Virus record (IMG/VR): IMGVR_UViG_3300048605_000012 | Source: a virus | DNA: 42,513 nucleotides | Strand: one strand, 5' to 3' | Program-made: the position numbers and the translations under genes | In this document: positions 2,886-25,206 of the stretch, in pieces | Layout of the letters: each line of letters starts with the position of its first letter | How positions within the stretch are numbered: the stretch's first letter is position 1 | The notes under the pieces: generated by a model | Databases searched by the model: none | Told to the model about the DNA's origin: nothing | What the model saw: the letters and a program-made list of their open reading frames with translations, nothing else

Positions 2886-5800
2886 TTTAGTTTGTTTTTC
2901 AATTGACTTACTTCTTTTTTTAGAGATTGGATCTCCTGCTCATGATCACTAAGGATAACATTTTGATACATGGTCAAACGATCATAAGCTAAACCTTCAA
3001 CTTGACCAGAAGAACCATATAAAACGACTTCCTTTAATCCTTTATTATCGAAATCATCAGCCACAAACCCGTAATGCCTTTGTGGTTTGTCTCCGCGAGC
3101 AATTTCAGCTTTATCGTACCAAGATGAAGGGAGAATAGACAAAAACCGTTTTGCTTTAGAAATTACTTCATCGGCCACTTGAATATCTTCTTTATACTTT
3201 CTTGCAGAAGTCGATCGACCTATAGTTCCTGCATTTGTTATAAACATATTTGATGCACTAGAATAGGTTCGATTATAAATGGCCATGCTCCAAATTCTTG
3301 GCGTACTATCCAGACCTAGCGAAATACCTGCAGGAGCATTAGAAAAATAACTATCACCGCCATTATTTAATTCTAATCGATCGGTTTTTAAAGTCATATT
3401 CGCTCCAGAGTAAACATCTAATTTTATCTGGTTATACTTAGCTTCAATTGGCGTGTATAATGAACCACTTTGATTATGCTTTATACGAACCCCATATTCT
3501 CCTTCCACAGAAAGATATTTGTCTCCATCCATTTGCATGACATAGCTGTCCTTGTTACCGGTGACAATTCTTTTTGCTTCCACGGTATTTGTACTAATAA
3601 ATCTGAGTTTTGCGTTCACTGTGTTGTTGAAGTTAACTATTGCGTCCACATTTCCCAAACCGTACATTTTCCACTCCATATTCGTTCTTGAAGACGTATC
3701 TGGAATTTGAAAGATTGGCATAGAAGTTGTATCAGTTGCTGATCCGGTATTTATTGAAAATACCTCTCCAGGCATCTGCACAATGGCTAATCCCACAGGT
3801 TCTTTCGACACATAGATAGGCTGGATTCTGGCTAATTCGTTTGTGCTTCTTCTAAAATAAATGCTCCCTTTTAGAAGTTCCATACTATATTCACCGGAAT
3901 CTGACTGAGTTATTCTCCCACCAGTCAGATCAATTGCATTTAAAGTGCCCGACACAATGCTATTCGCATTTAAGTTGATAATGTTCACATTTGAAGCGTT
4001 TAGCGTTCCAGTGGTAATCTTGGTTGCTGATAGACTACCGATTTTAGCATCAGTGATCGCTGCATCCGCAATCTGAGCAGTGCCAACTGCGAGATTTGCT
4101 ATCTGCGCTCTACCGATAACACCGTCTTCAATAGTAGTCTGGCCGGTTATCCGAACTTTATTACCGGCAATTAAAATTTCTTCTGTAGATAAGTTGATTT
4201 GATTGATTACATCATCTTTTTGAACCCTAACATTCAATTGGTCACCCAAACTACTAATCTGACTTGTGTGACCATTAGCTAAGTCCGTTGTTTGTTGCCA
4301 TTGACTAGCCAACTGTGTTACCTGAGACTGATCAGCCTTGTTAGAAACTGTAGTCTGAATAGTATCCACACGTTGAACAAAACTAGAGAATTTGACCACA
4401 CTGACTTGATCTTCTGGAGATGGTACCCAGTCATTGACGATGGTTCCCTCAGCAATCATAGCGTGCCAGATAATAAATTCTAAATCATCCGCCACCACAT
4501 TTCGATAGAATACAAACTGCATGGCAGCTGTACCAGCAGCTTGCTTAGCTGGATTCCAAACTAATCTTGCGGTTGTTCCGGCTGGCACATCTAAGAACTG
4601 GCTGATATTATTGTGGACTCTCATCGCTTTCGTTCCAGTATTGCTGATATAAATACTATGGATGTAGTTTACATTAGCAGTTATGATACGGTTAGCTCGA
4701 AGAGTACCAACAATGACGTTAGTTCCTCCAGTCACATTGTGTTTGACTGCATTTGTAGCTTTCCATTCAGTTACAGATTGATTCTCGGTATAAGTTATTG
4801 TAGATCCTAAATAATTTGCCACCTTAGGGGATTCAGAATTAGGTAAATAATTTCTAGCCCCTACCGACAAGTTATCAAGATCATTTTTAACACTGCTAAC
4901 TGTACTGCTTAGTCCGGAATAGCTCGATTGTAAACTGCCAATTTGAGTAGTGTGTCCATCAGTTTTTGTATTTAAGGCAGTGATTTGACCAGCTTGAGTA
5001 TTTAAAGACGATTCAACAGAAGTCACTTTTCCACTAATCGTTTCTACATCAGTTTTATTAGCCTTAATTTCTATCTGCCCAGCCATTGTTGTGATTTGAC
5101 CTTCAGCAGTTGATACTCTTCCTGTTAGAGTATTAACTGTACTTGAATCAGCCTTTTGGGTGATAGCATTAGTATTTTGTGTGATCTTAGTCGTTTGATT
5201 TCCGACAGTTCCTTCAAGTGTGTTAAATTTATCTTGGCTGACTTTTCGTGAAAGCTCACCGTTGATTTCACTTAACTCAACTTTTACTTCACCATCTACT
5301 TTATTTGGATCTTTTATCCAAGTATAGTCTTCTGGATTTGTTGATTTTTCATTGCTAAAACCAATATACGTTGGATAGGCGTTGGTAAAGTCGTCGGCCG
5401 GCGCCGGTGTGTAAATTGTAGCTGTATCAGTTGCCGATTCTGCCTTTTCTATTTTAACGTTAGTGATCTCAAAAAAATCACTAGTATCATAAACACTATA
5501 AAACTCAATCGTATCGTAATCTAGCGTTGCGTCCGTCCGTTTAGTAAGAACCGTGTTTACTTCTAACCGTGTTTTTTCGGTCCCTACATTACGAATTAGC
5601 TTACTGGTAAAGATGAAAGGTCCCTTACGATTTGAATTATAAACGGTTAATTGTAGTCCTTTAAGCATTACAATGTCAAAAGATATAACGGCCCTATCGC
5701 CTGATTCAAAATTGTCGACCCAGGTGGTCCCGATATTAAGAGTTTGGTATTCTTTTCCCGATCTAGCTGCAGCTTCCAGGTCGCCGATTTTGGCGGTTTG

Positions 5801-7435
5801 ACTACCTAAAAAATAGTTTTCGTTAGGGTACTGCGTCGTAAAGCGATCAGTACCATCAGCACTCCAAGCGTAAGCTGGGAACATGCCTAATTCTTTAAAC
5901 TTATCAATTGCTGCCTGCGCATCGGTCTTAGCACTGTTAGCAGCGTTCAATGCGTTTTGAGCATTTGAAACTGCCAGCTGTGCATCTTGCTTTGCTGTAT
6001 TGGCGTTTGATATTGCGGAAGAAGCGTCAGCTTTTGCTTGATTAGCTGCAGCATTTGATTGATCTGCTTTCACACTAGCTTCATTAGCTTTACTTACAGC
6101 ATTGTTGGCGTTACTTAATGCATTGGCAGAATCCGTCTTCGCTTGATCAGCTGCTTCTTGAGCATTTTCTCCTGCTTGTTTTGCCTGTTCGATTTCTTTT
6201 ACCAAATCAGGATCTGTTGCAGTGGATACTTTAAACACCCAATCCAATTCTCCAGAACTATTTTTCTCGTATACCCAAATCTCAGTATCTACACCATTTG
6301 GCTTAAACCAAATATCGCCTTCTTTTGGATCTATAGGCTCTGTTTGATCGTAGTAATTGCTGTTCCATTTATTGGCACTAAGAAGAGATTCAACATAATC
6401 CACTCGTTGATTTAAAGGACCACGGTATCTATAAGTTGCCTGTGAACTTGAATTGGTATTTGCTTTTGATTCTGAAGACATTCCACCATTAAAGGTGATA
6501 TTGTACGACAGATTAGGGACAGAATATCTAGTACCGTCTTTATCAACAATATAGATCCAGTCTCCTGCTTCCAAAATGGGACTTCCACGCCACTTCAATT
6601 CGTAAGGAAAATAATTAAGTGTCTTGACTAGTTCCCACATTTGATTCAAATGTGTTTGAGTCATCACTTTATTCTCAAGCTCAACTTGTGATCCATTGGT
6701 AGAACCAACGCGAATGACATCCGTTTCTTCTTCACCGGTTTTCACCGTGATGCCACCAATTCGATAGCTGTTCTCATTTTTAGTAAATCCCTTTAACATG
6801 TATGATTCTGGAGTGATTTCAAAGTTTGTGGGTGCTAGTCTTTTTATTGTTAATTCACCCTTGCGGTTAAAACTTGCAAAACCACCTTCAAACTGAGCAA
6901 TCAAACCGATTGCTTGGCGAAACGTATATCCTACAGGTTTCTGAACCCACTCAGTTCCAAGAGAAGCAAATGAGGCTTGATCAATTTCAACACCTGCTAA
7001 ATTAGCTATTTCTAACGCAACTTCCCGATATGGCTTAGGATAGGTTAATTTTGATTCATATATTCCTTCCATATAAATCATTTTGTCATTTGCAGTAATT
7101 GTAGTCTTATTACTGTTTCTATCACGCTCAAAGTCTGTTATAAAAAAATGACCTAATTTAGTGAACTGATATTCACCATTAATTAAAATCCCCAACTCTG
7201 GTTCAATTTCTAAATCTTCTTTCACTGTTTCAATAATTGTTGGAAAAACTACCTGAACCGAATTCAGAGGGGTTGAACCAATCTGAAACACTTCACCCGA
7301 TATACTGCCAGAATTAAAAGAGAGTGAGGTAATTTCCTCACTCCCATAGGTGATATCATTCATTTTTAATCTGATTGACAATTGCCTTGATGTATTAAGC
7401 CAAGCAGCATGAATTTCTTCACTTGTGGCTAACAA
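2867..7435 (-). CDS. Tail-tip / tail-associated lysin-like fibre protein (1522 aa) with a prophage-tail N-terminal domain, an Ala-rich coiled coil and a C-terminal S74-type intramolecular chaperone domain
   Basis: TTG start with an RBS, sited after the TMP and a small tail protein. An A/N/Q-rich heptad stretch lies near aa 415-515. The C-terminal region (STSARKYKEDI ... YGFVADD ... GLAYDRL) plus a terminal coiled coil is typical of autoproteolytic chaperone domains. Confidence 0.8.
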   Translation of the reverse strand: MLATSEEIHAAWLNTSRQLSIRLKMNDITYGSEEITSLSFNSGSISGEVFQIGSTPLNSVQVVFPTIIETVKEDLEIEPELGILINGEYQFTKLGHFFITDFERDRNSNKTTITANDKMIYMEGIYESKLTYPKPYREVALEIANLAGVEIDQASFASLGTEWVQKPVGYTFRQAIGLIAQFEGGFASFNRKGELTIKRLAPTNFEITPESYMLKGFTKNENSYRIGGITVKTGEEETDVIRVGSTNGSQVELENKVMTQTHLNQMWELVKTLNYFPYELKWRGSPILEAGDWIYIVDKDGTRYSVPNLSYNITFNGGMSSESKANTNSSSQATYRYRGPLNQRVDYVESLLSANKWNSNYYDQTEPIDPKEGDIWFKPNGVDTEIWVYEKNSSGELDWVFKVSTATDPDLVKEIEQAKQAGENAQEAADQAKTDSANALSNANNAVSKANEASVKADQSNAAANQAKADASSAISNANTAKQDAQLAVSNAQNALNAANSAKTDAQAAIDKFKELGMFPAYAWSADGTDRFTTQYPNENYFLGSQTAKIGDLEAAARSGKEYQTLNIGTTWVDNFESGDRAVISFDIVMLKGLQLTVYNSNRKGPFIFTSKLIRNVGTEKTRLEVNTVLTKRTDATLDYDTIEFYSVYDTSDFFEITNVKIEKAESATDTATIYTPAPADDFTNAYPTYIGFSNEKSTNPEDYTWIKDPNKVDGEVKVELSEINGELSRKVSQDKFNTLEGTVGNQTTKITQNTNAITQKADSSTVNTLTGRVSTAEGQITTMAGQIEIKANKTDVETISGKVTSVESSLNTQAGQITALNTKTDGHTTQIGSLQSSYSGLSSTVSSVKNDLDNLSVGARNYLPNSESPKVANYLGSTITYTENQSVTEWKATNAVKHNVTGGTNVIVGTLRANRIITANVNYIHSIYISNTGTKAMRVHNNISQFLDVPAGTTARLVWNPAKQAAGTAAMQFVFYRNVVADDLEFIIWHAMIAEGTIVNDWVPSPEDQVSVVKFSSFVQRVDTIQTTVSNKADQSQVTQLASQWQQTTDLANGHTSQISSLGDQLNVRVQKDDVINQINLSTEEILIAGNKVRITGQTTIEDGVIGRAQIANLAVGTAQIADAAITDAKIGSLSATKITTGTLNASNVNIINLNANSIVSGTLNAIDLTGGRITQSDSGEYSMELLKGSIYFRRSTNELARIQPIYVSKEPVGLAIVQMPGEVFSINTGSATDTTSMPIFQIPDTSSRTNMEWKMYGLGNVDAIVNFNNTVNAKLRFISTNTVEAKRIVTGNKDSYVMQMDGDKYLSVEGEYGVRIKHNQSGSLYTPIEAKYNQIKLDVYSGANMTLKTDRLELNNGGDSYFSNAPAGISLGLDSTPRIWSMAIYNRTYSSASNMFITNAGTIGRSTSARKYKEDIQVADEVISKAKRFLSILPSSWYDKAEIARGDKPQRHYGFVADDFDNKGLKEVVLYGSSGQVEGLAYDRLTMYQNVILSDHEQEIQSLKKEVSQLKNKLKELEAA

Positions 7436-7816: not shown

Positions 7817-10800
7817 CTATATGTTTAACTCGGTATACCCAAGCTGTTGATGGTATTTGTTGATTTCTTTAACTGCAATACGTCCGAATTCTTTACCGCC
7901 AATATTAATGACAATATCACCATTTGGCGCTTGTGTTGGCGTTGCTCCCAATGCAGAAATAGCATTCATCAATGTGGTTACCATAGATGAAGTGAAGTCT
8001 TTCATACCGCCACCTTCATAGTTCATTTGATTGTTGTTACTAAACGTACTGTTAGACGGTGTGAACGTTGGTTCTTGGAACATTTCCGGCAACACTATAC
8101 TTGAATTGAACATATCCAGTCCAAGATACTCAACGGCTTGTTGAATCAATTCAGCGGCACGTTGTGGTTTCTCTAGTGGAATAACCATCTCTTTCTTGTT
8201 TCCTTCGCCCATACGGTATAAACCGTCTTGATTGACTATGCCGCCGTTTTCATAACCTACAATTCTTCGACCAGTTGGTCCCCAACCTCTGCGACCATAA
8301 GGTAGGTCATACCGCCAATTTGAATTATTGAAGAAAGCTAACAATTGATGATAGCCATTAAAAATATTTTCATAGCCGCGAAGTTTATAAGCATTAAACG
8401 TGGACGGGATATATTGAAGCAGGCCTCTTGCTGGGTTCCCATTTGCCATGTTTATATCCCACACAGCTGAGCTTTGAGTAATACTCTGATTACCACCAGA
8501 CTCTCTTTGAATTTGAGCGAGAACTCCATTAATTTCAGAACTGCTAATCCGCTGTCCTAGTTTGCTTGCAGCCTGTTTGATTTTCGATGTCCATCCACCA
8601 TTACCTACAGCAGCACCGCCGATTGCACCAAACGAAGCATTTTTGTCGATATCGCTTGGTCCAAGAGATCCATTGATATGCAAGTGATCGTAGTGGTCAT
8701 TCTGCGGCCATCTTACCCAACTGCCACTTGATCCAGTACCAGACATTCCTTTACGGTCTCGAACTTTCCCTTGAGTGATTACATAAGCTACTTTTGATGC
8801 AAAGTTATCAAACACCCAATTGGCAGGAGCCATGTATTTAGATGATCCATTCATACTTGCTGGATACGCAACGTCAATTGCCTGATGCTTCCCATGGGAA
8901 TGAGGGTCCCCTGGTCTGAAACCAGAGGTGATTCGCATACCTGGATATCGATCGACAGTCTTTCTAGCGATATCGTATAGGTATTTGTATACACCCCAAC
9001 TTCCCATTGATCCATCAAACGAACTATTTTGTGCTTCATGTCCTGCAGCAAATTTTGATTTAAACCATTCATAGGAACCCTCAGCAACAGTTCCAACAGC
9101 TCCTTTAGCCATTGATAATGCTGGCTCAAAAGCATTACTTAAATTAACAAATTTGGAAACTGCAGCATTCAATAACTTTTTAGGATTAGATGCATAAGAC
9201 CAAATGTCTGAAGCAATTTCTTTTGCACCATTCCACTTTTCTTTGAACCAGTCACCTATTCCGTTAGCATAGGCCGGCACTCCGTACATTGCAGCAGTCT
9301 TTGGACCACTCAACACAGATGTTCCTTTTGGCAAATTTACCATCAAATTTCGCTGTGCCGGGAAGATACCTGTGCGACCGTCTGGCGTACGATAGGCTTC
9401 TTGATAGTTAGATCCTAATCCATCATTGACTAAAGCAGGCCCACCCGGGTGATATCCAGTACCTCTTGCATATTTGGGGACTTCCCACGAAGATAGCGTA
9501 CTTTTTCCAGCTCCCACCTTTTTTAGAACCCAGTTGATACCATCAATGACGCCATTAACACCCTTACCTATTACACTAATCATGCCATTGAAGATCTTTC
9601 CAGCACCATCTTTTACAGACTTAACACCATTACTTAAACCTTTTCCGATTTTGCTTCCAAGACCATTTGCCCAATCGCCAATCTTTTCAAAAACACTCGA
9701 AGCAGTAGACTTCATCGAATTTAAAGAATTGCTCATATTTGTTCTTAATGTTGAAAAAGCATTGCTAGCGTTATTCTTAGCTGCTCCGGCCTGGTTTGAA
9801 ACCTTATCTTTGATTTCATCCCATTTTGATCGCGTATTGCTCCAAGTCTCAGACCATCGATCAGAGACATTTCTTTTTAATTCTTGCAGTCTTGTTGAAG
9901 CATTTTCCTTAGCGGTTTTGGCTTTAGACGAAATAGTAGTAGAAAAGTTATCCCAAGTGTCCTTGGTGTTTTTCTTAACATCTGACCATCTGTTACTTAC
10001 AGATTTCCAAATATCAGAGGCTTTATCAGAGACTGTTTTTTTCGCATCATTCCATTTTTCGCTAGTCCACTTAGTAACTTTTCCCCAAGCTTCTGAAGTG
10101 GCCGTTTTAATGCCATCCCATTTTTCTCCAATCCATTTACCAAGTTTCCCTGCTGCTTCTTTAATCGTATCCCAATTTTTCCAAAGTAACACACCTGCAG
10201 CTACAGTTGCAGCAATCGCAATGGTTATTGGCCCACCTAAAACTGCTACTACTCCACCAATTGCACTGCCCACAGCCGATAGAATTCCAGCAAGTCCACC
10301 TATTGAACTGAGGAAACCGAATATTGAACTCAATACTCCGACGACTGTAGATAAGATACTTAATAATTTTAAGGTCGCCACAAATGTTCCGAAAACAATT
10401 ACAAAGTTAGAAAAACCTTCAGAGTGCTTGGTTATCCAATCCCCTATATCAGATAATACGTCGGCTAAAGATTCTATGAATTCAACAACTACTCCGCCAG
10501 TCCATGTTGCTATAGGTTTTAAGAAGTTATCCCACAACCATTTAAAAGCAGGCTTTAACCCCTCGATAATTCCGTTTAGTAAATTTAGAGCACCACTAAG
10601 TAAATCTAAAAATGCCGGTATGACATTTTCTATAGTAAATTTTGCTAACGGCAGTAAAACATTCTCATAAAACCAAGCTAGTCCAGCTCCTATATTTTCC
10701 GCTAGCGGCTGAATAGATTTCAATAAACCCTCAATAGACGACAATAAAGGAGTAAAGTTAAGCTTCTTACCCCACTCTTCGGTAGCTCCAGCCATTACAC

Positions 10801-12964
10801 TTATTTTTTCTAATAAGCCATCAACAATTTCAAGAATAGTTGAAAAGATAGATTCACCAACACTGCCAGCTTTCCATGCCTCTGAGAATTGGTTAGCTAT
10901 ATTTGATACTGCATTATTTAATTTTGTAACGATTTCTAACAGATTTCCCAAAATTGATTCGCCTAGTCCGTTGTCATTCCATGCATTTCTAAATGAATTC
11001 GCTACTTCATGCAATAAGCCCAGAATCGAATTCCACAAATCAAAATACGATTGAATCAGGCGTGTTCCTCGTCCGTTGTCTTCCCAAGCTCGTCTGAAAG
11101 CACTAGCGATATCACCAATTATTCCGAGTATATCTGCAAGCAGGATTAATATATTTTCTATGAAAAGCCGTCCTGTACCATTGGTCCAAACTTCCATAAA
11201 TGACCTGCCGATAGCAGAAGCCAAACCTATTACTTCACTTAATGCATATTTCCAAGCATCGATCACTCGTTGTCCTTGATTTTTCCATGCATCTTGGAAA
11301 GGCTTGAAGAAATCCTTCAACAAGTTTTGGATGTCTTTCATCCATTTAGGCGTAGAATAGGTACCAGTTGCAGCTCCAAAATCAATACCAGGAGCAGAAT
11401 CTTCTTTCTTTTCATCATCTGTATCCATCGTTAGCTTGTTGATTTGGTCAAATCCCATGAGAGACTTTTGTAGTTTCTTCACTTTTTCATTGGCTTTATT
11501 TGCGGAAGAACCAGTATCGTTTAGCGCTTGGATATTGTCATACAATCCACTAGCGCCTTGTTTTGCTGCATCATATGTTGTCCCGAATAGCATTGCAATA
11601 AAGGAAGCTAGCTGCCCTGTGAGCTGTGCCACCGTACTCATTAACGCATTCAATGCTGGTAAGATTGCCGTATATATTGGATAAAATGCCGTCATCAGGT
11701 TGACTTTAATCTGATTCAACGAAGCACTGAATTGATCGTTCGTTTTCAATGCTGACATCATACCGCTAGCCAGTTTAGTAATTGCGCCACCTAACAGCTG
11801 ATAAACGACCAATGAAGGTAATAGATATTTCATCGACTGGCCAAAAGCGTTCGTGCTTCCTGTCATTCGATTTGTTCCAGCTGTAACTTTGTTGGAATTA
11901 CTAGAAAATAGACTTCCGAACTTTCCAATAAATCCAAGAGAGTTCCTCAAGCCATTTCCGACGCTCCCAAATCCGTGTGAAACTGCATTGGACATACGGT
12001 TGAATACTCCGCCATATTTAGAAACAGCTCGCTCAGATTGCTTCAACCCTGAGCCTGTCATACTTGCACCGTTAGAAGCATTACCAGTTTGAATGGAGGA
12101 TTGGCCCAATGCAGAGTTAACTCGTTGTAGAGCCTTTCTCAATGTTTCTGCTCGATCTTCTGTTTGGGAATACTCCTTCTGTAGACGATCATTATCACTG
12201 ATTAATTTATTCATCTTGATTGATTGTTTTTGAATCTCACCAGACGTTTTCAGTGATTGAGGAGTATCCTCATAGTTCTTGAATCCAGATGTAAAGCTGC
12301 CAGTTGGCACACGTTGATCGTTATATTCTGCCTTTAATGTTCGAATTCGTTTTCTCATCGCTTCGATTTGAGACTCGTTTTGACTCATACCTTTTGTAAT
12401 GTTGTCCAGTGAAGAAGGAACTGCATCAAGTTCCCGTTTGATGGTATTACCCAATCCAGCTGCTTGATCTTTGAACTTCGTCATTTGCGCTTGCGCTCGG
12501 GCGATCTGTTCATCATATTTAACGACTTTGCCTGTATCCCCTTGACTCGATGCCGTTTGTCTTTGCGATTTCAGATAAGCAACCTTTTCTTGCGCTGCTT
12601 TCGCTTGGCCCATTTTAGCGTTGATTTCATTGATCATCGCATCAATTTCTTTGGTTACTTTCGGACGAGCTTTGCGAATACCAGAAGAAAAATTGTCACC
12701 AGCAGCTTCAGATGATTGCTTTGTCGATCGTTCGAAGTTTGATAACGTCTTCTCGAGTGCTTGATTCATTTTTTCTAGTTGTTTTGTGAAATTGCTAGCA
12801 CCTTTTTCAATATCCATATTCTTCTCAGTACGATCCATAGAGTTACCGGACATTTGTTGGATTCGACTCATAGCACTTTCAATTTGTGGCAGCACTCGTT
12901 CCAAAGACTGCTCAACTCTGGCAGTATTAATATCGAGGAGTACCTCAAGCGTTTCTAATTCCAT
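7817..12964 (-). CDS. Tape measure protein (1715 aa) with embedded M23-type peptidase and lytic transglycosylase (SLT) domains
   Basis: Size and position fit a TMP. A central hydrophobic Gly/Ala-rich block and an 11-residue-spaced Trp repeat (KWIGEKWDGIK...RWSETWSNTRSKWDEIK) are present. The M23 motifs are HGKHQAIDV and DHYDHLH (about 8660-8960). The SLT motifs are QIQRESGGN and GLLQYIPSTF (about 8330-8560). Confidence 0.9.
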   Translation of the reverse strand: MELETLEVLLDINTARVEQSLERVLPQIESAMSRIQQMSGNSMDRTEKNMDIEKGASNFTKQLEKMNQALEKTLSNFERSTKQSSEAAGDNFSSGIRKARPKVTKEIDAMINEINAKMGQAKAAQEKVAYLKSQRQTASSQGDTGKVVKYDEQIARAQAQMTKFKDQAAGLGNTIKRELDAVPSSLDNITKGMSQNESQIEAMRKRIRTLKAEYNDQRVPTGSFTSGFKNYEDTPQSLKTSGEIQKQSIKMNKLISDNDRLQKEYSQTEDRAETLRKALQRVNSALGQSSIQTGNASNGASMTGSGLKQSERAVSKYGGVFNRMSNAVSHGFGSVGNGLRNSLGFIGKFGSLFSSNSNKVTAGTNRMTGSTNAFGQSMKYLLPSLVVYQLLGGAITKLASGMMSALKTNDQFSASLNQIKVNLMTAFYPIYTAILPALNALMSTVAQLTGQLASFIAMLFGTTYDAAKQGASGLYDNIQALNDTGSSANKANEKVKKLQKSLMGFDQINKLTMDTDDEKKEDSAPGIDFGAATGTYSTPKWMKDIQNLLKDFFKPFQDAWKNQGQRVIDAWKYALSEVIGLASAIGRSFMEVWTNGTGRLFIENILILLADILGIIGDIASAFRRAWEDNGRGTRLIQSYFDLWNSILGLLHEVANSFRNAWNDNGLGESILGNLLEIVTKLNNAVSNIANQFSEAWKAGSVGESIFSTILEIVDGLLEKISVMAGATEEWGKKLNFTPLLSSIEGLLKSIQPLAENIGAGLAWFYENVLLPLAKFTIENVIPAFLDLLSGALNLLNGIIEGLKPAFKWLWDNFLKPIATWTGGVVVEFIESLADVLSDIGDWITKHSEGFSNFVIVFGTFVATLKLLSILSTVVGVLSSIFGFLSSIGGLAGILSAVGSAIGGVVAVLGGPITIAIAATVAAGVLLWKNWDTIKEAAGKLGKWIGEKWDGIKTATSEAWGKVTKWTSEKWNDAKKTVSDKASDIWKSVSNRWSDVKKNTKDTWDNFSTTISSKAKTAKENASTRLQELKRNVSDRWSETWSNTRSKWDEIKDKVSNQAGAAKNNASNAFSTLRTNMSNSLNSMKSTASSVFEKIGDWANGLGSKIGKGLSNGVKSVKDGAGKIFNGMISVIGKGVNGVIDGINWVLKKVGAGKSTLSSWEVPKYARGTGYHPGGPALVNDGLGSNYQEAYRTPDGRTGIFPAQRNLMVNLPKGTSVLSGPKTAAMYGVPAYANGIGDWFKEKWNGAKEIASDIWSYASNPKKLLNAAVSKFVNLSNAFEPALSMAKGAVGTVAEGSYEWFKSKFAAGHEAQNSSFDGSMGSWGVYKYLYDIARKTVDRYPGMRITSGFRPGDPHSHGKHQAIDVAYPASMNGSSKYMAPANWVFDNFASKVAYVITQGKVRDRKGMSGTGSSGSWVRWPQNDHYDHLHINGSLGPSDIDKNASFGAIGGAAVGNGGWTSKIKQAASKLGQRISSSEINGVLAQIQRESGGNQSITQSSAVWDINMANGNPARGLLQYIPSTFNAYKLRGYENIFNGYHQLLAFFNNSNWRYDLPYGRRGWGPTGRRIVGYENGGIVNQDGLYRMGEGNKKEMVIPLEKPQRAAELIQQAVEYLGLDMFNSSIVLPEMFQEPTFTPSNSTFSNNNQMNYEGGGMKDFTSSMVTTLMNAISALGATPTQAPNGDIVINIGGKEFGRIAVKEINKYHQQLGYTELNI

Positions 12965-21563: not shown

Positions 21564-22859
21564 TTATTCCATCCATGTAGGACGATTAGTAATTTTAACT
21601 TTGTTGCTCTTGAAGATAATCGTGTAAACGAAATATCTTACGGCATCCATTGCATGGTCATTTTGCTTTATAGGCTTATCCTCTCCACGATCCATTGCTT
21701 TAGAATCCCATATATAAGAACTAAATTCCTTTAGGGTATTCACACAAGAGGAATTAAACGCTATTTTTTCTTCGTTAAGAAGAGTACCAACAAAACGAAT
21801 GCCATCTAGCACATCATTTTTTGCTTTTCTTATTTTGAAGTTTCTCTTCTTTAATTCGGCAATAAAAGAAGCAGCGGACGGATCCACAATCACTTCTTTA
21901 ATACGGATGCCTTCTGTAAACTTCTGTAATTCATCAGCAAATTCACTATCGGTCTTTTGTTTCTTGCTATCACGTCCAGAATAATAGAATTCTTTTACGC
22001 AATACCAGATGCCATCTTTGCCTTTTTGCCACAACAAAAATACGGTAGCGTTCTGCGTACCGTAGTCAATGCTTATATAATTATCACCAAAGATGAAATC
22101 AACTAATTTATTGTAGACATGCTTTGATTGATCAAACATATCGTAAATGATACCTTCAGCAACTGTCCACAAACCAAGAATATACCGTTTGTAGAAGACT
22201 CCTGAATACATGCTGCGATATCTCTTCTTGATAGACTCATCTAAACTAAGATTGTCATCCATCGTAAAGTGAAGATACACCAAATTTTTTTCTTTAATCT
22301 TGTCAATCCAATTCAGTTTGAACCAATGATATGGGCCATCTGGGTTGCAGTTAAACCAAAACTTGGAACCTTTCTCGGAACAACGCCCAGTCGCTTGGTT
22401 TACAAAGGATTCTGGCATAAGTGCTACTTCATCAAAAAACATGCCAGCTAATGTAATACCTTGAATCAAGTCTTGAGATCGTTCATCTTTACCACCAAAA
22501 ACATAGAAGTAATTGGTATTGCCTTTTTTAGTGACTTCCAGCATGTTGTCAGCACGATGGTCTTTGTAACGATATCCTCTTGATAGAAGCATGAGTTTTA
22601 ACCAAAAAAGAACATTCCGCCGAAATGAGCCGATTGTTTTACCTGCCATACCAAGGTTTTTGCTGTCAAATGTTGACATAGCCCACATGACATAAGATAA
22701 ACACATTGAAATAGTCTTGCCAGAACGAATAGCGCCATCTGCTATGATCCCGTCTTTATCTTTGACAGCAGACTTTTTTGTCCACCATGTAAGAATCATC
22801 TTCTGCTTTTTGCTGAAAGGTTTGAATTTGAAAACCGCCTGTTTTACTCTTCTGGCCAT
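21564..22859 (-). CDS. terL: Terminase large subunit (431 aa)
   Basis: Walker A-like GAIRSGKT, and synteny with terS and the portal. Confidence 0.9.
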   Translation of the reverse strand: MARRVKQAVFKFKPFSKKQKMILTWWTKKSAVKDKDGIIADGAIRSGKTISMCLSYVMWAMSTFDSKNLGMAGKTIGSFRRNVLFWLKLMLLSRGYRYKDHRADNMLEVTKKGNTNYFYVFGGKDERSQDLIQGITLAGMFFDEVALMPESFVNQATGRCSEKGSKFWFNCNPDGPYHWFKLNWIDKIKEKNLVYLHFTMDDNLSLDESIKKRYRSMYSGVFYKRYILGLWTVAEGIIYDMFDQSKHVYNKLVDFIFGDNYISIDYGTQNATVFLLWQKGKDGIWYCVKEFYYSGRDSKKQKTDSEFADELQKFTEGIRIKEVIVDPSAASFIAELKKRNFKIRKAKNDVLDGIRFVGTLLNEEKIAFNSSCVNTLKEFSSYIWDSKAMDRGEDKPIKQNDHAMDAVRYFVYTIIFKSNKVKITNRPTWME

Positions 22860-23704
22860 AGTTCTTCACCTTCAGCTTCCAATGCTGCCAAGAAACCATC
22901 GTCTTCCATATCAAACTCTTCGCTGCCATCCTTATTCTTAGCAATAGCCGCAGCAATCTGCACTTCTCGCAACCGATCACCGCCAAGATATTTCATGAGT
23001 TCTGACATGGCTTTTTGTTTGTCATAAAGTTTGACCGATATGCCGTCTTTCCCCTTTTTGACTTCTTGAATAAGCGTACCATCAACCTCTTCACTACTCT
23101 TCAGTGCAACCTGTGATGATTTGTACGTTTCTAACTCCCCAGTAAACTCGTTAAACACCTCTCGCTTCTCACCAGCATCATCATACTCATATAGTTTGTG
23201 TTCTGTTGATGAGAACTCAACGAAATCAGTGATATCAGCAAACGCCTGCTTTGCGTATTCTCTTATCAGATCTTTTACATCAAGAAAGACATCTTGCTGC
23301 AATTCCGCCTTCAGCCTTCTTAACTCGACCTTTATGCTATCTTTTGCTATCAATCTTATGCTGTTAGACCTAGCGGAATTATAGTCGCATCCATACGCTT
23401 GTTGATACGCCTTCGTTGCATTAAATGATTGTAAATAGTAAAGACAGAACAACTTTTGTTGCTCTGTCAGGTCATCGTTATTAATTATTAATTGCGGTGA
23501 ATCATTTGCCTTATCGGAGTGTTCCTTTTTATTCGGAGCGCTCCTTTTGGAATCGGAACGCTCCCAGTTATCTTGTGATTTCCATTTTCTGATAGTTGAC
23601 GGACGTTCTCCTAATTCCTTGGCTATATCTACTAAAGGTCGTTCTTTTGATTTTAGCCACAATTTATAGGCTTTATCTCTATTTGGGTTTCTTTGTCTAG
23701 CCAT
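22844..23704 (-). CDS. terS: Terminase small subunit (286 aa)
   Basis: N-terminal HTH (LVDIAKELGERPSTIRKWK) and the Terminase_2-like core LTEQQKLFCLYYLQSFNATKAYQQAGY. It overlaps the terL start. Confidence 0.85.
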   Translation of the reverse strand: MARQRNPNRDKAYKLWLKSKERPLVDIAKELGERPSTIRKWKSQDNWERSDSKRSAPNKKEHSDKANDSPQLIINNDDLTEQQKLFCLYYLQSFNATKAYQQAYGCDYNSARSNSIRLIAKDSIKVELRRLKAELQQDVFLDVKDLIREYAKQAFADITDFVEFSSTEHKLYEYDDAGEKREVFNEFTGELETYKSSQVALKSSEEVDGTLIQEVKKGKDGISVKLYDKQKAMSELMKYLGGDRLREVQIAAAIAKNKDGSEEFDMEDDGFLAALEAEGEELWPEE

Positions 23705-23750: not shown

Positions 23751-23779
23751 AAAAAAAGACACCCTGTTTTTAGGGTGTC
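23751..23779 (-). terminator. Rho-independent terminator between the 133-aa gene and terS
   Basis: On the minus strand, GACACCCT-aaaaac-AGGGTGTC is followed by TTTTTTT. Confidence 0.8.
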
Positions 23780-23785
23780 AACCAA

Positions 23786-24184
23786 TTATTTTTTGAACCA
23801 ATCAAGATAGCTTTCTATCGATTTTAAATCAAATAGTTCGCCATTACCCTCATAGACGGCTTTTCCATCTCTATAAATGATATCGTCAATCTTTGTTGCA
23901 TCTAAAACTCCCGGCTCATACACTATAACCTCGATATGTGAATCTCCATCATAATCGACTTTTATTTGGCGGTCTCCGATGCTGAGTACAGTTCCTCTAC
24001 GGTTCCCAGTTTTCGCTACGTTGATATTGTTCTGATTTTCATCGATGTTAAGATCCTCAGTCAATTTATTCTTTAAATTAAAGAATTCACTTGCGATATC
24101 ATCTATAACGCGCTTCATTATCGTCAGCTTAGATGTTTCAGGTAGTTGACTACCTACATATTCTTTCAACTCTTCGTAATTCAT
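23786..24184 (-). CDS. Hypothetical protein (133 aa from MNYEELKEY), first ORF of the late region
   Basis: RBS GGAGGGTGATAAGC before the ATG at 24184. The longer track ORF (to 24403) runs through structured non-coding RNA and has no RBS. Confidence 0.65.
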   Translation of the reverse strand: MNYEELKEYVGSQLPETSKLTIMKRVIDDIASEFFNLKNKLTEDLNIDENQNNINVAKTGNRRGTVLSIGDRQIKVDYDGDSHIEVIVYEPGVLDATKIDDIIYRDGKAVYEGNGELFDLKSIESYLDWFKK

Positions 24185-24208
24185 GCTTATCACCCTCCAT
24201 TCAAAACA

Positions 24209-24237
24209 ATAATAATTGTTATTTAGAACGAAAGCAA
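24209..24237 (-). promoter_or_regulatory. Possible sigma-A promoter for the 133-aa gene (TTGCTT-17-TATTAT)
   Basis: The hexamers lie at 24237-24232 and 24214-24209 on the minus strand, just downstream of the leader terminator. Confidence 0.35.
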
Positions 24238-24240
24238 TGT

Positions 24241-24264
24241 AAAAAAGCAGCCCCGAGGGACTGC
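24241..24264 (-). terminator. Rho-independent terminator ending the structured leader RNA
   Basis: On the minus strand, GCAGTCCC-TCG-GGGCTGC is followed by TTTTTT. Confidence 0.8.
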
Positions 24265-24570
24265 AAAGTAGGAAGTACCAAAGATCATGTGAGTAATCTA
24301 ATCGACAACTCCCAAAGCCACTGGTGAGGACTTGAACCTCACTTACGAGTCGTACACATTCTATGCATAGCCTCTGCATTTCCCCGGTCTGCCACAGTGA
24401 CATAAAATTAAGACGGCTAGCGAATGAAGATAAGGAGTGTGTTCAACTCCATTCATTTTAAATTTTTGGGTGCCGTCTTAATTAAATACAGGGCGCTGAA
24501 AGGTAATCACGAAAGTAGGTCTGCCAACGAATCATAAAGGAGTGCGCCCTGATATTTAAAAATTTCTACA
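24265..24570 (-). ncRNA. Structured untranslated leader / candidate ncRNA (about 300 nt, three helical domains)
   Basis: Domain A (24489-24551) is closed by CAGGGCGC/GCGCCCTG. Domain B (24408-24481) is closed by TTAAGACGGC/GCCGTCTTAA, with nested GAATG/CATTC and GGAGT/ACTCC helices. Domain C (24317-24401) is tRNA-like. There is no RBS-preceded ORF. Confidence 0.55.
24317..24401 (-). other. tRNA-like element (acceptor-like stem plus canonical T-arm, no anticodon arm)
   Basis: On the minus strand, GTCACTG pairs with CAGTGGC. The T-arm is TGAGG-TTCAAGT-CCTCA, with the GGTTCAAGTCC consensus. No 5-bp anticodon stem or proper D stem can be drawn. Confidence 0.45.
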
Positions 24571-24575
24571 ATACT

Positions 24576-24621
24576 ATTGTATCACTGGATTTGTTGCATG
24601 TGTGTGCATGTTTTGTGCATG
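24576..24621 (-). promoter_or_regulatory. Candidate activator-dependent late promoter: three helically phased CATGCA(C/A)(A/C) repeats upstream of a TACAAT -10 box
   Basis: Plus-strand TGTGCATG lies at 24603-24610 and 24614-24621, and GTTGCATG at 24593-24600. The -10 TACAAT is at 24581-24576 on the minus strand. There is no good -35. Confidence 0.4.
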
Positions 24622-24623
24622 GG

Positions 24624-25142
24624 CTACCAATCATTAATCATGTCGATACCAAACAGAACTACCGATAAATCTTCAAGCGCTTCTTTACAGTTGCGACTAA
24701 TAGTAGAACGATCAACATGTAATTGCTCTGCTAATTTATCATCATTCAACAATGGACGCTCAATAAACTTTTTGTTAATGATTCGCCACTTCCGCTTGTC
24801 TTCCGGCTTACCTGTTGAAAGACAAATCTCCTTATAAGCTTCTAGGCATATATCAACATGCTTCATAAGCTTAACTGATTTCGCTTTATTTTGCATCAGT
24901 AAATCGAGGTTCAACCACTTATGCTCCCAAAATGTTCCTTGCACTTCCTCTACATGCTCCTCAACCGCTTCACTATGGGCTTTTAACTTGTGATAGTTGT
25001 TCATCAGCAATCTTGTATTGTGAAAAGCTCTTTTCTTGAACTGTTTTTTCTCATATTCCCTGTCTTTTTGAATTCCTTTCCTAATTTTTAGAGCTAGTTC
25101 ATCTAATTGTTTATCTGAAAGTTCATGAACATTAATTTCCAA
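24624..25142 (-). CDS. Late-gene transcriptional regulator, ArpU/RinA-like sigma region-4 HTH protein (172 aa from the TTG; the track ORF extends to 25196)
   Basis: The C-terminal LAEQLHVDRSTISRNCKEALEDL is a sigma-70 region-4-like HTH. It is the last gene before the packaging genes. The TTG at 25142 sits 8 nt after GAGGAGG. Confidence 0.65.
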   Translation of the reverse strand: MEINVHELSDKQLDELALKIRKGIQKDREYEKKQFKKRAFHNTRLLMNNYHKLKAHSEAVEEHVEEVQGTFWEHKWLNLDLLMQNKAKSVKLMKHVDICLEAYKEICLSTGKPEDKRKWRIINKKFIERPLLNDDKLAEQLHVDRSTISRNCKEALEDLSVVLFGIDMINDW

Positions 25143-25206
25143 TAACTGGACCTCCTCTTTATTTCCACCTTGACTCGGGCGTCTAGATGAATACATTTCT
25201 TTTTTA

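Follow-up and report, generated by a model that had tools for sequence, protein, structure and literature searches.

An undescribed modular late-leader RNA with an exchangeable tRNA-shaped unit in temperate phages of Enterococcus

What occupies the long gap that separates the last early gene of a temperate phage from its late operon? In viral record IMGVR_UViG_3300048605_000012 (42,513 nt; "the window" below is this whole stretch) 439 bp (24185-24623) lie between a putative late regulator gene and the next open reading frame (ORF) preceded by a Shine-Dalgarno (SD) sequence. An earlier note, made without database searches and giving the gap as 434 bp, had proposed that it specifies a structured untranslated RNA on the minus strand. 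The repeats, helices and terminator of such a unit are indeed present, and the region 24235-24580 folds at -102.2 kcal/mol (z = -3.9), a stability equalled by none of 100 shuffles. We conclude that this leader RNA belongs to a modular family of Enterococcus temperate phages that was hitherto undescribed; what is new is the late-leader RNA unit itself, a variant of phage tRNA units and of late leaders, of which we found no description in the searchable literature. Our preferred reading, which we hold at a probability of about 60%, is that the unit is the activator-driven leader of the late operon, that ribonuclease (RNase) P and RNase Z excise a tRNA-shaped cargo from it, and that a hairpin, D, caps the downstream 5' end so created.

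The features of the leader, all on the minus strand and given in the order in which they would be transcribed, are these:

24594-24621, minus strand: three direct repeats, CATGCAC / CATGCAC / CATGCAA, with a spacing of 10-11 nt
24576-24584, minus strand: extended -10 TGATACAAT, as read from the sequence; conservation across relatives begins at its TAnnAT column
24482-24559 (core 24489-24551), minus strand: hairpin A, made of inverted repeats; fold z = -3.0
24406-24483, minus strand: hairpin B, a perfect inverted repeat; folded alone, z = -5.8
24316-24401, minus strand: cargo slot with the tRNA-like cloverleaf C, 85 nt (24317-24401) plus a discriminator U at 24316
24269-24314, minus strand: hairpin D, 17 pairs with loop UUACUCACA, starting 2 nt past the cargo discriminator
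24241-24264, minus strand: intrinsic terminator, GCAGUCC-CUCG-GGGCUGC followed by U6

The CATGCA(C/A) pattern is unique to 24621-24594 within the window, with 0 occurrences expected by chance, and the three repeats are a probable activator operator. A transcript start is predicted near 24569, and hairpin A begins about 10 nt past it. Hairpin A is closed by the 8-bp helix CAGGGCGC/GCGCCCTG (24489-24496/24544-24551) that had been described before, and it extends further, through TTAAATA/TATTTAA. The closing helix of B is perfect, as had been claimed, and 12 bp long rather than 10: AATTAAGACGGC/GCCGTCTTAATT at 24406-24417/24472-24483. The 5' loop inside it is rich in A and the 3' side rich in U, and the apical hairpin is GGAGU-UGAACAC-ACUCC (24450-24434). 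An inner pairing, GAAUGGAG/CUUCAUUC, competes with nested GAATG/CATTC and GGAGT/ACTCC helices; these two exist, but in the form in which the note gave them they share one G. The -10 box and the strong terminator were both located where they had been placed, the latter having the 7-bp stem with five GC pairs, 4-nt loop and run of six U residues typical of an intrinsic terminator. Overlooked until now were hairpin D (24314-24269), the CATGCA(C/A) repeats, and the fact that the slot is swappable and holds real tRNAs in relatives.

No SD-preceded ORF is present in the gap. Two mechanical ORFs, with starts at 24456 and 24403, lack an SD. We rejected as coding sequence a 31-amino-acid ORF and a mechanical 205-amino-acid extension whose start lies inside the tRNA-like unit; in relatives, the gap ORFs are broken by 1-2-nt indels at 11 alignment columns, and in one locus (L002) the ORF crosses a tRNA. 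We also rejected the 9-mer TGGCAGACC as a functional repeat. It occurs in exactly two copies in the 42.5-kb window, at 24518-24526 and 24386-24394 on the minus strand, just as the note had reported, with a chance expectation of 0.18 and two matches in 2 of 100 shuffles. It does not define the element, the second copy being missing in relatives with a tRNA-Pro or tRNA-Lys cargo. Rfam was scanned with the whole window at gathering score and with 24100-24700 at E <= 10; apart from one chance small nucleolar RNA match, no family was found, in agreement with the suggestion that no known family is represented.

Close relatives were gathered through exact 20-mers from B and D, which gave about 55 loci (viral contigs, metagenomes and E. 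casseliflavus NBRC 100478; individual loci carry L numbers below), and a search with an ArpU protein added about 25 more distant ones. In all of the roughly 55 loci, a conserved block runs from the -10 column to the U run of the terminator, with a mean pairwise identity of 88.5% for A plus B and 93% for D. By blastn against a phage collection, the window-type leader found two records, E. gallinarum phage EG-TP1 and one faecal contig, and the longer type discussed below found 19 Enterococcus phage records. Exact 18-20-mers were present in 11 metagenomic contigs and, among species-representative genomes, only in E. casseliflavus and one metagenome-assembled Bacillota genome, the remaining six matches being to unrelated taxa and consistent with chance. 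Aligned with EG-TP1 and the faecal contig, the window is near identical in A, B, D and the terminator, and wholly different in domain C.

This exchange of C is general. The distance from B to D ranges from 77 to 682 nt among relatives, and the slot between them contains, by ARAGORN and Rfam, tRNA-Pro(UGG), tRNA-Lys(UUU), a Pro plus Ile(GAU) pair, or tRNA-like scaffolds. True tRNA cargos, of which tRNA-Lys(UUU) is the commonest, score 60-62 bits on the Rfam tRNA model. The Pro(UGG) and Lys(UUU) cargos (L003, L005, L009, L014 and others) do not differ at all in their acceptor, D and T arms, which include a C1-G72 pair of the Pro type; the sole difference is in the anticodon arm, as though a single tRNA body had received one such arm in exchange for another. 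One slot (L054, 4903-5348) holds two tRNA-like units of 91 and 85 nt, with a GC-richer spacer of about 240 nt between them that gave no Rfam match.

Domain C had been called tRNA-like, and its cloverleaf fold, together with covariation in the T stem, bears this out. In the consensus fold the acceptor stem has 7 bp, the D stem 3 bp, the "anticodon" arm 10 bp and the T stem 6 bp; the acceptor, GUCACUG/CAGUGGC, stacked on the T arm, GUGAGG-UUCAAGU-CCUCAC with a loop of the UUCRAnY type, is as in a tRNA, and the "anticodon" arm carries an internal loop and a 3-nt apical loop instead of a 7-nt loop on a 5-bp stem. No CCA is encoded. ARAGORN called no tRNA or transfer-messenger RNA (tmRNA) anywhere in the window, domain C included, and the Rfam tRNA model (RF00005; threshold 29 bits) gave no match at E <= 10 over 24100-24700.

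The other scaffolds share this tRNA-like shell: the acceptor is GUCACUG/CAGUGAC, the D arm in most cases resembles that of tRNA-Leu, and the T stem has 6 bp. The place of the anticodon arm is taken by a structured insert or by nothing. Total lengths run from 51 to 276 nt (276 nt in L150, L158 and L159; 159 in L094; 140 in L025 and L048; 129 in L127 and L130; 114 in L132). The 51-nt version lacks the anticodon arm entirely, and the 114-nt version barely reaches the Rfam tRNA threshold, at 29.8 bits. The inserts are of at least 12 different kinds, 0-225 nt long, and match no known RNA family in Rfam; one insert hairpin shows a compensatory change, from GGCAU/GUGCU to GGUAU/GUACU. Only the acceptor stem and T arm are common to all cargos, and every cargo lacks an encoded CCA and has a U at the position after the discriminator. 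In keeping the acceptor stem and T arm while replacing the anticodon arm by other RNA, C resembles tmRNA and YrlA; it differs in having no G3-U70 pair, no tag reading frame and no Ro-associated context, and no ARAGORN tmRNA call or YrlA match was obtained in the window. In the laboratory "tRNA scaffold" for RNA expression, too, an insert replaces the anticodon arm, and the natural scaffolds mirror this engineered one. A tRNA-like shell is also present in a 155-kb viral contig with a tRNA island (L131; regions 198-1132 and 4215-6255), where 6010-6110 gave a YrlA-like match that is weak and sub-threshold.

Is the element then maintained as RNA or as DNA? Pairing switches in D provide moderate evidence for constraint on RNA. 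Across 42 distinct sequences 98.6% of cells are paired, against 42-59% in register-slid controls, and of the 17 pairs nine vary on one side only (among G-U, A-U and G-C) and one changes on both sides, breaks being rare singletons. On the opposite strand these switches would be C-A mismatches, so the constraint appears to act on the strand from which the late genes are read. The closing helix of A is invariant in 39 sequences save for four G-U and two A-C changes, and an inner pair of A switches from A-U to U-G, nine sequences having U-U there. In the cargo, T-stem pairs 2-4 covary over 20 variants (C-G, U-A, A-U; A-U, G-C; A-U, U-A), and the acceptor stem shows wobble changes only.

B-like modules in the leaders of other Enterococcus phages, identified by descriptor search and covariance model, have six different closing helices of 10-13 bp around the same core, which comprises an A-rich strand, a GRRG-UGAAnnn-CYYC hairpin and a U-rich strand. 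Shuffled flanks gave a helix of at least 10 bp in 6.5% of trials and of at least 12 bp in 1.4%, and in the covariance-model alignment seven of the eight modelled closing pairs have compensatory changes. A hairpin follows the last tRNA or tRNA-like unit after 0-3 nt in 40 of 42 distinct leaders; with a start within 3 nt and a minimum free energy <= -8, the figure is 83% of leaders versus 14.5% of random 50-mers. These hairpins fall into two unrelated classes, D and, in E. faecalis phages, RGURGC-loop-GCYRCUU. The earlier note had named lack of conservation, lack of covariation and a conserved small ORF as grounds on which its proposal should fall; we found none of the three.

These patterns bear on the idea that the element is a signal in the DNA, either a pac or cos packaging site or a conserved sequence that links the early to the late module and serves recombination. 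Several public records begin or stop inside it (L001, L002, L041) and it lies at a mosaic boundary between gene modules. Contig breaks are, however, expected at a repeat shared by co-resident prophages, the substitutions keep pairing on one strand only, and the element precedes at least three unrelated families of terS (terminase small subunit) as well as several non-packaging genes, all of which makes a DNA signal very improbable. In the "complete genome" of EG-TP1 (L001, L173; PQ571292.1) the two ends share a repeat of about 130 nt, which reaches from the tRNA-like unit across D into the beginning of the terminator. We rejected a packaging site on this ground as well: the repeat is an assembly overlap and the termini are arbitrary.

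Our preferred reading of a processed late leader runs as follows. The regulator from the gene just upstream would bind the three direct repeats and fire the adjacent promoter, and RNA polymerase would make, in order, A, B, the tRNA-shaped cargo, D and the terminator. Host RNase P and RNase Z would cut the cargo out. This step is suggested by the cargos themselves, which keep an acceptor stem stacked on a T arm, with no CCA and with a U after the discriminator, and the presence of real tRNAs in the slot of relatives points to RNase P/Z processing as the core mechanism. The leader would thereby be split in three: a 5' A-B RNA of about 170 nt, the cargo, and a 3' piece beginning with D. In Firmicutes, RNase J1 attacks 5'-monophosphate ends unless a hairpin lies close to the end; D, 2 nt from the new monophosphate end, should thus shield the RNA downstream from 5'-end-dependent decay. 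The terminator would halt most polymerases, which leaves a discrete RNA about 330 nt long, and the late genes would be expressed by the fraction that reads through (past two terminators in the window). The source of this read-through may be promoter strength and leakiness, the regulator, or A and B acting on polymerase. That an RNase P or Z cut sets the ends of a neighbouring RNA is familiar from the E. coli tRNA-tufB operon, the T4 tRNA cluster with its stable species 1 and 2 RNAs, mitochondrial tRNA punctuation and MALAT1-mascRNA. To our knowledge, in none of these tRNA-punctuated systems do conserved hairpins flank an exchangeable cargo in the leader of a phage late operon.

The more distant loci allow this reading to be set against published experiments. 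They are the E. faecalis phages phiFL1-3, phiEf11, IME197 and VEsP-1, whose leaders of 650-800 nt gave no nhmmer match to A plus B or to D. These long leaders carry B-like modules at the same place as B (by descriptor search and covariance model), tRNAs such as Arg, Trp, Cys, Glu and Asn, and a GUCACUG tRNA-like unit; true tRNAs were all that Rfam matched in these and the other related leaders. The B of E. faecalis types includes CGUUCUCAA, a string with some likeness to boxA that the window type lacks. An extra non-coding domain of about 200 nt (L119 1420-1625 and its equivalents in L091, L101 and L112), to which no Rfam family corresponded, separates the B-like hairpin from the tRNA-like unit. 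Hammerhead-like CUGANGA/GAAA strings in the phiFL2A leader were rejected, as no ribozyme model matched the near-identical L091 leader or its relatives. In the late leader of a more distant phage (L115, 3815-3892) ARAGORN identifies a tRNA whose anticodon, UUA, would decode the stop codon UAA.

In phiFL2A, ArpU binds three 7-nt repeats directly after arpU, the repeats are essential for terS expression, and ArpU is the sole phage protein needed for that expression, even in S. aureus (PMC3753634). Repeat binding and the terS requirement have been demonstrated for phiFL2A and for staphylococcal phages (PMC3753634). With these Ltr (ArpU/RinA) late promoters the window has in common three direct repeats of about 7 nt right after the regulator stop, the arrangement defined in PMC3753634, and a late operon running from terS downstream. 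The phiFL2A leader is longer and made of related modules, in the order B-like hairpin, GUCACUG tRNA-like unit, tRNA, hairpin and terminator-like hairpin. In PMC3753634 this region is regarded as a promoter with a terminator, and no RNA element is mentioned.

The late "start" of phiFL2A was mapped by 5' rapid amplification of cDNA ends to a G 118 bp upstream of the terS ATG (PMC3753634, Quiles-Puchalt et al. 2013). In phiFL2A (L119, NC_013643; positions are those of the locus) arpU ends at 1200, the repeats occupy 1204-1232, an unannotated tRNA-Arg(ACG) lies at 1801-1875 and the terS ATG is at 1995. The published start is therefore position 1877, 2 nt past the 3' end of the tRNA and about 650 nt from the ArpU repeats, and this location makes it probably a processing site. 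We infer that RNase Z very probably produced the mapped 5' end and that the true promoter is the one next to the repeats. A 12-bp hairpin with U5 lies about 30 nt before terS, downstream of the mapped 5' end, so RNAs that reach terS must cross it, which indicates some read-through in vivo.

Several points weigh against the processed-leader reading. For the window and its close relatives, the transcript start and the processing are predictions from sequence, and cleavage of the tRNA-like cargo by RNase P and Z is suggested by its shape, which the tRNA models miss. Recruitment by exact 20-mers means that the similarity of the close relatives is partly built in. A and B scarcely vary within the close family, the shuffle control for D says nothing about one-sided changes, and the covariance-model alignment of B leans towards the structure used to build it. 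A weak sigma-A promoter, with TTTACA-17-AACAAT as candidate, may lie 3' of the terminator. Finally, the processing model assigns A and B no necessary role, although these parts are conserved the most, and processing alone leaves a strong terminator before essential late genes unexplained.

The leader might instead be a cis-acting processive antitermination RNA similar to HK022 put or Bacillus EAR, nascent A and/or B making polymerase resist the terminators of the leader and of inserted genes farther downstream, perhaps with host Nus factors. Two strong terminators (24264-24247 and 23779-23758) stand between the window's only activator operator and terS, and with no second operator before terS, late expression needs read-through. 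The element directly follows that operator, with both canonical terminators between it and terS; terminator-bearing accessory genes are tolerated here in many relatives, as expected if late transcription ignores terminators; the leader stays constant while the regulator families differ; and phiFL2A transcripts cross a terminator-like hairpin with ArpU as the only phage protein required, in S. aureus also (PMC3753634). The same reporter system, however, speaks to the contrary: read-through from an upstream Pcad promoter without ArpU was blocked within the intergenic region and gave no expression (PMC3753634), whereas an RNA acting on any polymerase should have rescued it. Moreover, excision of the cargo would sever A and B from the elongating polymerase, no similar family was found in Rfam, and a strong promoter with a leaky terminator explains the same data. 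We regard antitermination by the leader RNA itself as unlikely - possible but unsupported.

The comparison that the earlier note drew with the lambda PR'/6S layout is apt in that two strong terminators separate the only operator from terS. In lambda (PR', 6S RNA and tR', with Q) and in HK022 (put), a late promoter and a short leader precede a strong terminator that has to be overcome, with a structured RNA close to the promoter, and the window leader likewise has promoter-proximal structured RNA upstream of terminators to be overridden. No Q-like protein, Q-binding site or put-like two-stem fold is known from the window leader; the regulator is described in the literature as an activator; and the tRNA-shaped processing unit of the window leader is missing in lambda and HK022. 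The note's likeness to put and EAR did not hold up: nothing ties the hairpins to either, and the Pcad reporter without ArpU was silent (PMC3753634). Rfam returned no match to described antitermination RNAs such as put and EAR, although which of these Rfam holds is unchecked.

The terminator itself raises a different possibility. In relatives it is either the same hairpin with compensatory stem changes or, at the same place, an unrelated AAAGCGGUCC...GGACCG followed by a U run, and the keeping of two unrelated versions suggests that termination at this point is itself selected. It might then be the terminated RNA of about 330 nt that matters, as a stand-alone late non-coding RNA whose scaffold delivers or stabilises trans-acting small RNAs or spare tRNAs, for example as decoys or replacements against tRNA-targeting defences, with A, B and D as a small analogue of GOLLD or ROOL. 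Selection for a discrete RNA would fit the two terminators, and the variety of inserts, at least a dozen kinds and one with a compensatory hairpin change, is in keeping with a delivery platform. So is the prominence of tRNA-Lys(UUU) as cargo, this tRNA being a frequent target of anticodon nucleases. Yet such a role is conjectural, the inserts resemble no known RNA family, and a cis role is hard to avoid for a unit placed exactly where the late operon must be transcribed; we consider a stand-alone RNA quite unlikely.

In GOLLD, conserved 5' and 3' parts frame a variable linker, in which tRNAs are sometimes found (PMC12286853, PMC5737381), and this presence of tRNAs is a point in favour of the platform idea (PMC12286853). 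GOLLD, ROOL and the leader are all phage-borne and tRNA-associated, with tRNAs in or near a variable linker. GOLLD and ROOL are, however, 500-800 nt or longer, pseudoknotted, ornate and cage-forming, whereas the conserved hairpins of the leader (A, B and D) are simple and add up to about 250 nt, a far smaller size, and the GOLLD and ROOL Rfam models found no match in the window.

A broader version, which we advance tentatively and as less probable than otherwise, combines these ideas. In it, the shell (acceptor, D arm and 6-bp T arm) would derive from tRNA-Leu and act as a tRNA scaffold excised by RNase P and Z. Late in infection this scaffold would launch and stabilise a varying set of spare tRNAs or of small structured RNAs, probably as part of an arms race against host defences directed at tRNA or RNA, and A and B would make the late transcription complex resistant to terminators.

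Whichever of these applies, a conserved RNA unit lies at the control point of late expression in Enterococcus temperate phages. Among these are the transducing phages of the phiFL group and phiEf11, in which the region has so far passed for ordinary promoter DNA. For phiFL2A, the published late start is suggested to be a tRNA-processing site, with the promoter about 650 nt upstream by the ArpU repeats. The family indicates that phage tRNAs can be exchangeable cargo in a fixed RNA frame, beside tRNA-like scaffolds with diverse inserts. It bears on how late transcripts of Gram-positive phages pass terminators, on why phages pair tRNAs with structured RNAs (GOLLD, ROOL), and on tRNA-shaped RNAs as processing signals or anti-defence tools.

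Three genes flank the leader in the window:

24624-25196, minus strand: regulator gene, 190 amino acids, last of the early region, at the position of an ArpU/Ltr late activator
23751-24184, minus strand: ORF132, with its own SD and terminator (23779-23758); phrog_20555, unknown function
22844-23704, minus strand: terS, first packaging gene of the late operon; phrog_2606 terminase small subunit, E = 2.6e-83

The regulator had been called ArpU/RinA-like. Its position and the type of repeat that follows it agree with this, and membership of the ArpU family does not: searches of Pfam and NCBIfam gave no ArpU (TIGR01637) match, so that the window departs here from Ltr/ArpU systems, and BLASTP against a 138-amino-acid ArpU gave E = 0.1. 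Its best match is phrog_1558, of unknown function, with weak C-terminal matches to the transcription-regulator families phrog_36 and phrog_248. In relatives the leader always has a small regulator gene upstream, ending 72-87 nt before A. There are three forms of these regulators, which cannot be aligned with one another and are each accompanied by different direct repeats; two are bona fide ArpU proteins, matching TIGR01637 at E = 4e-37 and 6e-16 next to the same leader, and the third, recognised by neither Pfam nor NCBIfam, is that of the window.

Downstream, terS is followed by a PBSX-type terL. ORF132 looks like an accessory gene inserted between the leader terminator and terS: TTTTTTACAT stands on both sides of the insert, and the sequence past the ORF132 terminator is that found directly after the leader terminator in L003, L012, L042 and EG-TP1. 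In relatives the leader is followed by at least three terS families or by accessory genes (DUF4145, DUF5677, membrane proteins), and by its gene content the spot between leader and terS is a hot spot for accessory cargo, with toxin-antitoxin, DUF4145 and DUF5677 genes. In one relative (L122) a type I toxin-antitoxin-like pair (rli28, 143 bits; RatA, BsrG) occupies 10643-10957, between the leader and the terS region. We rejected this rli28 match as a part of the leader; it is a type I toxin-antitoxin cargo downstream of it.

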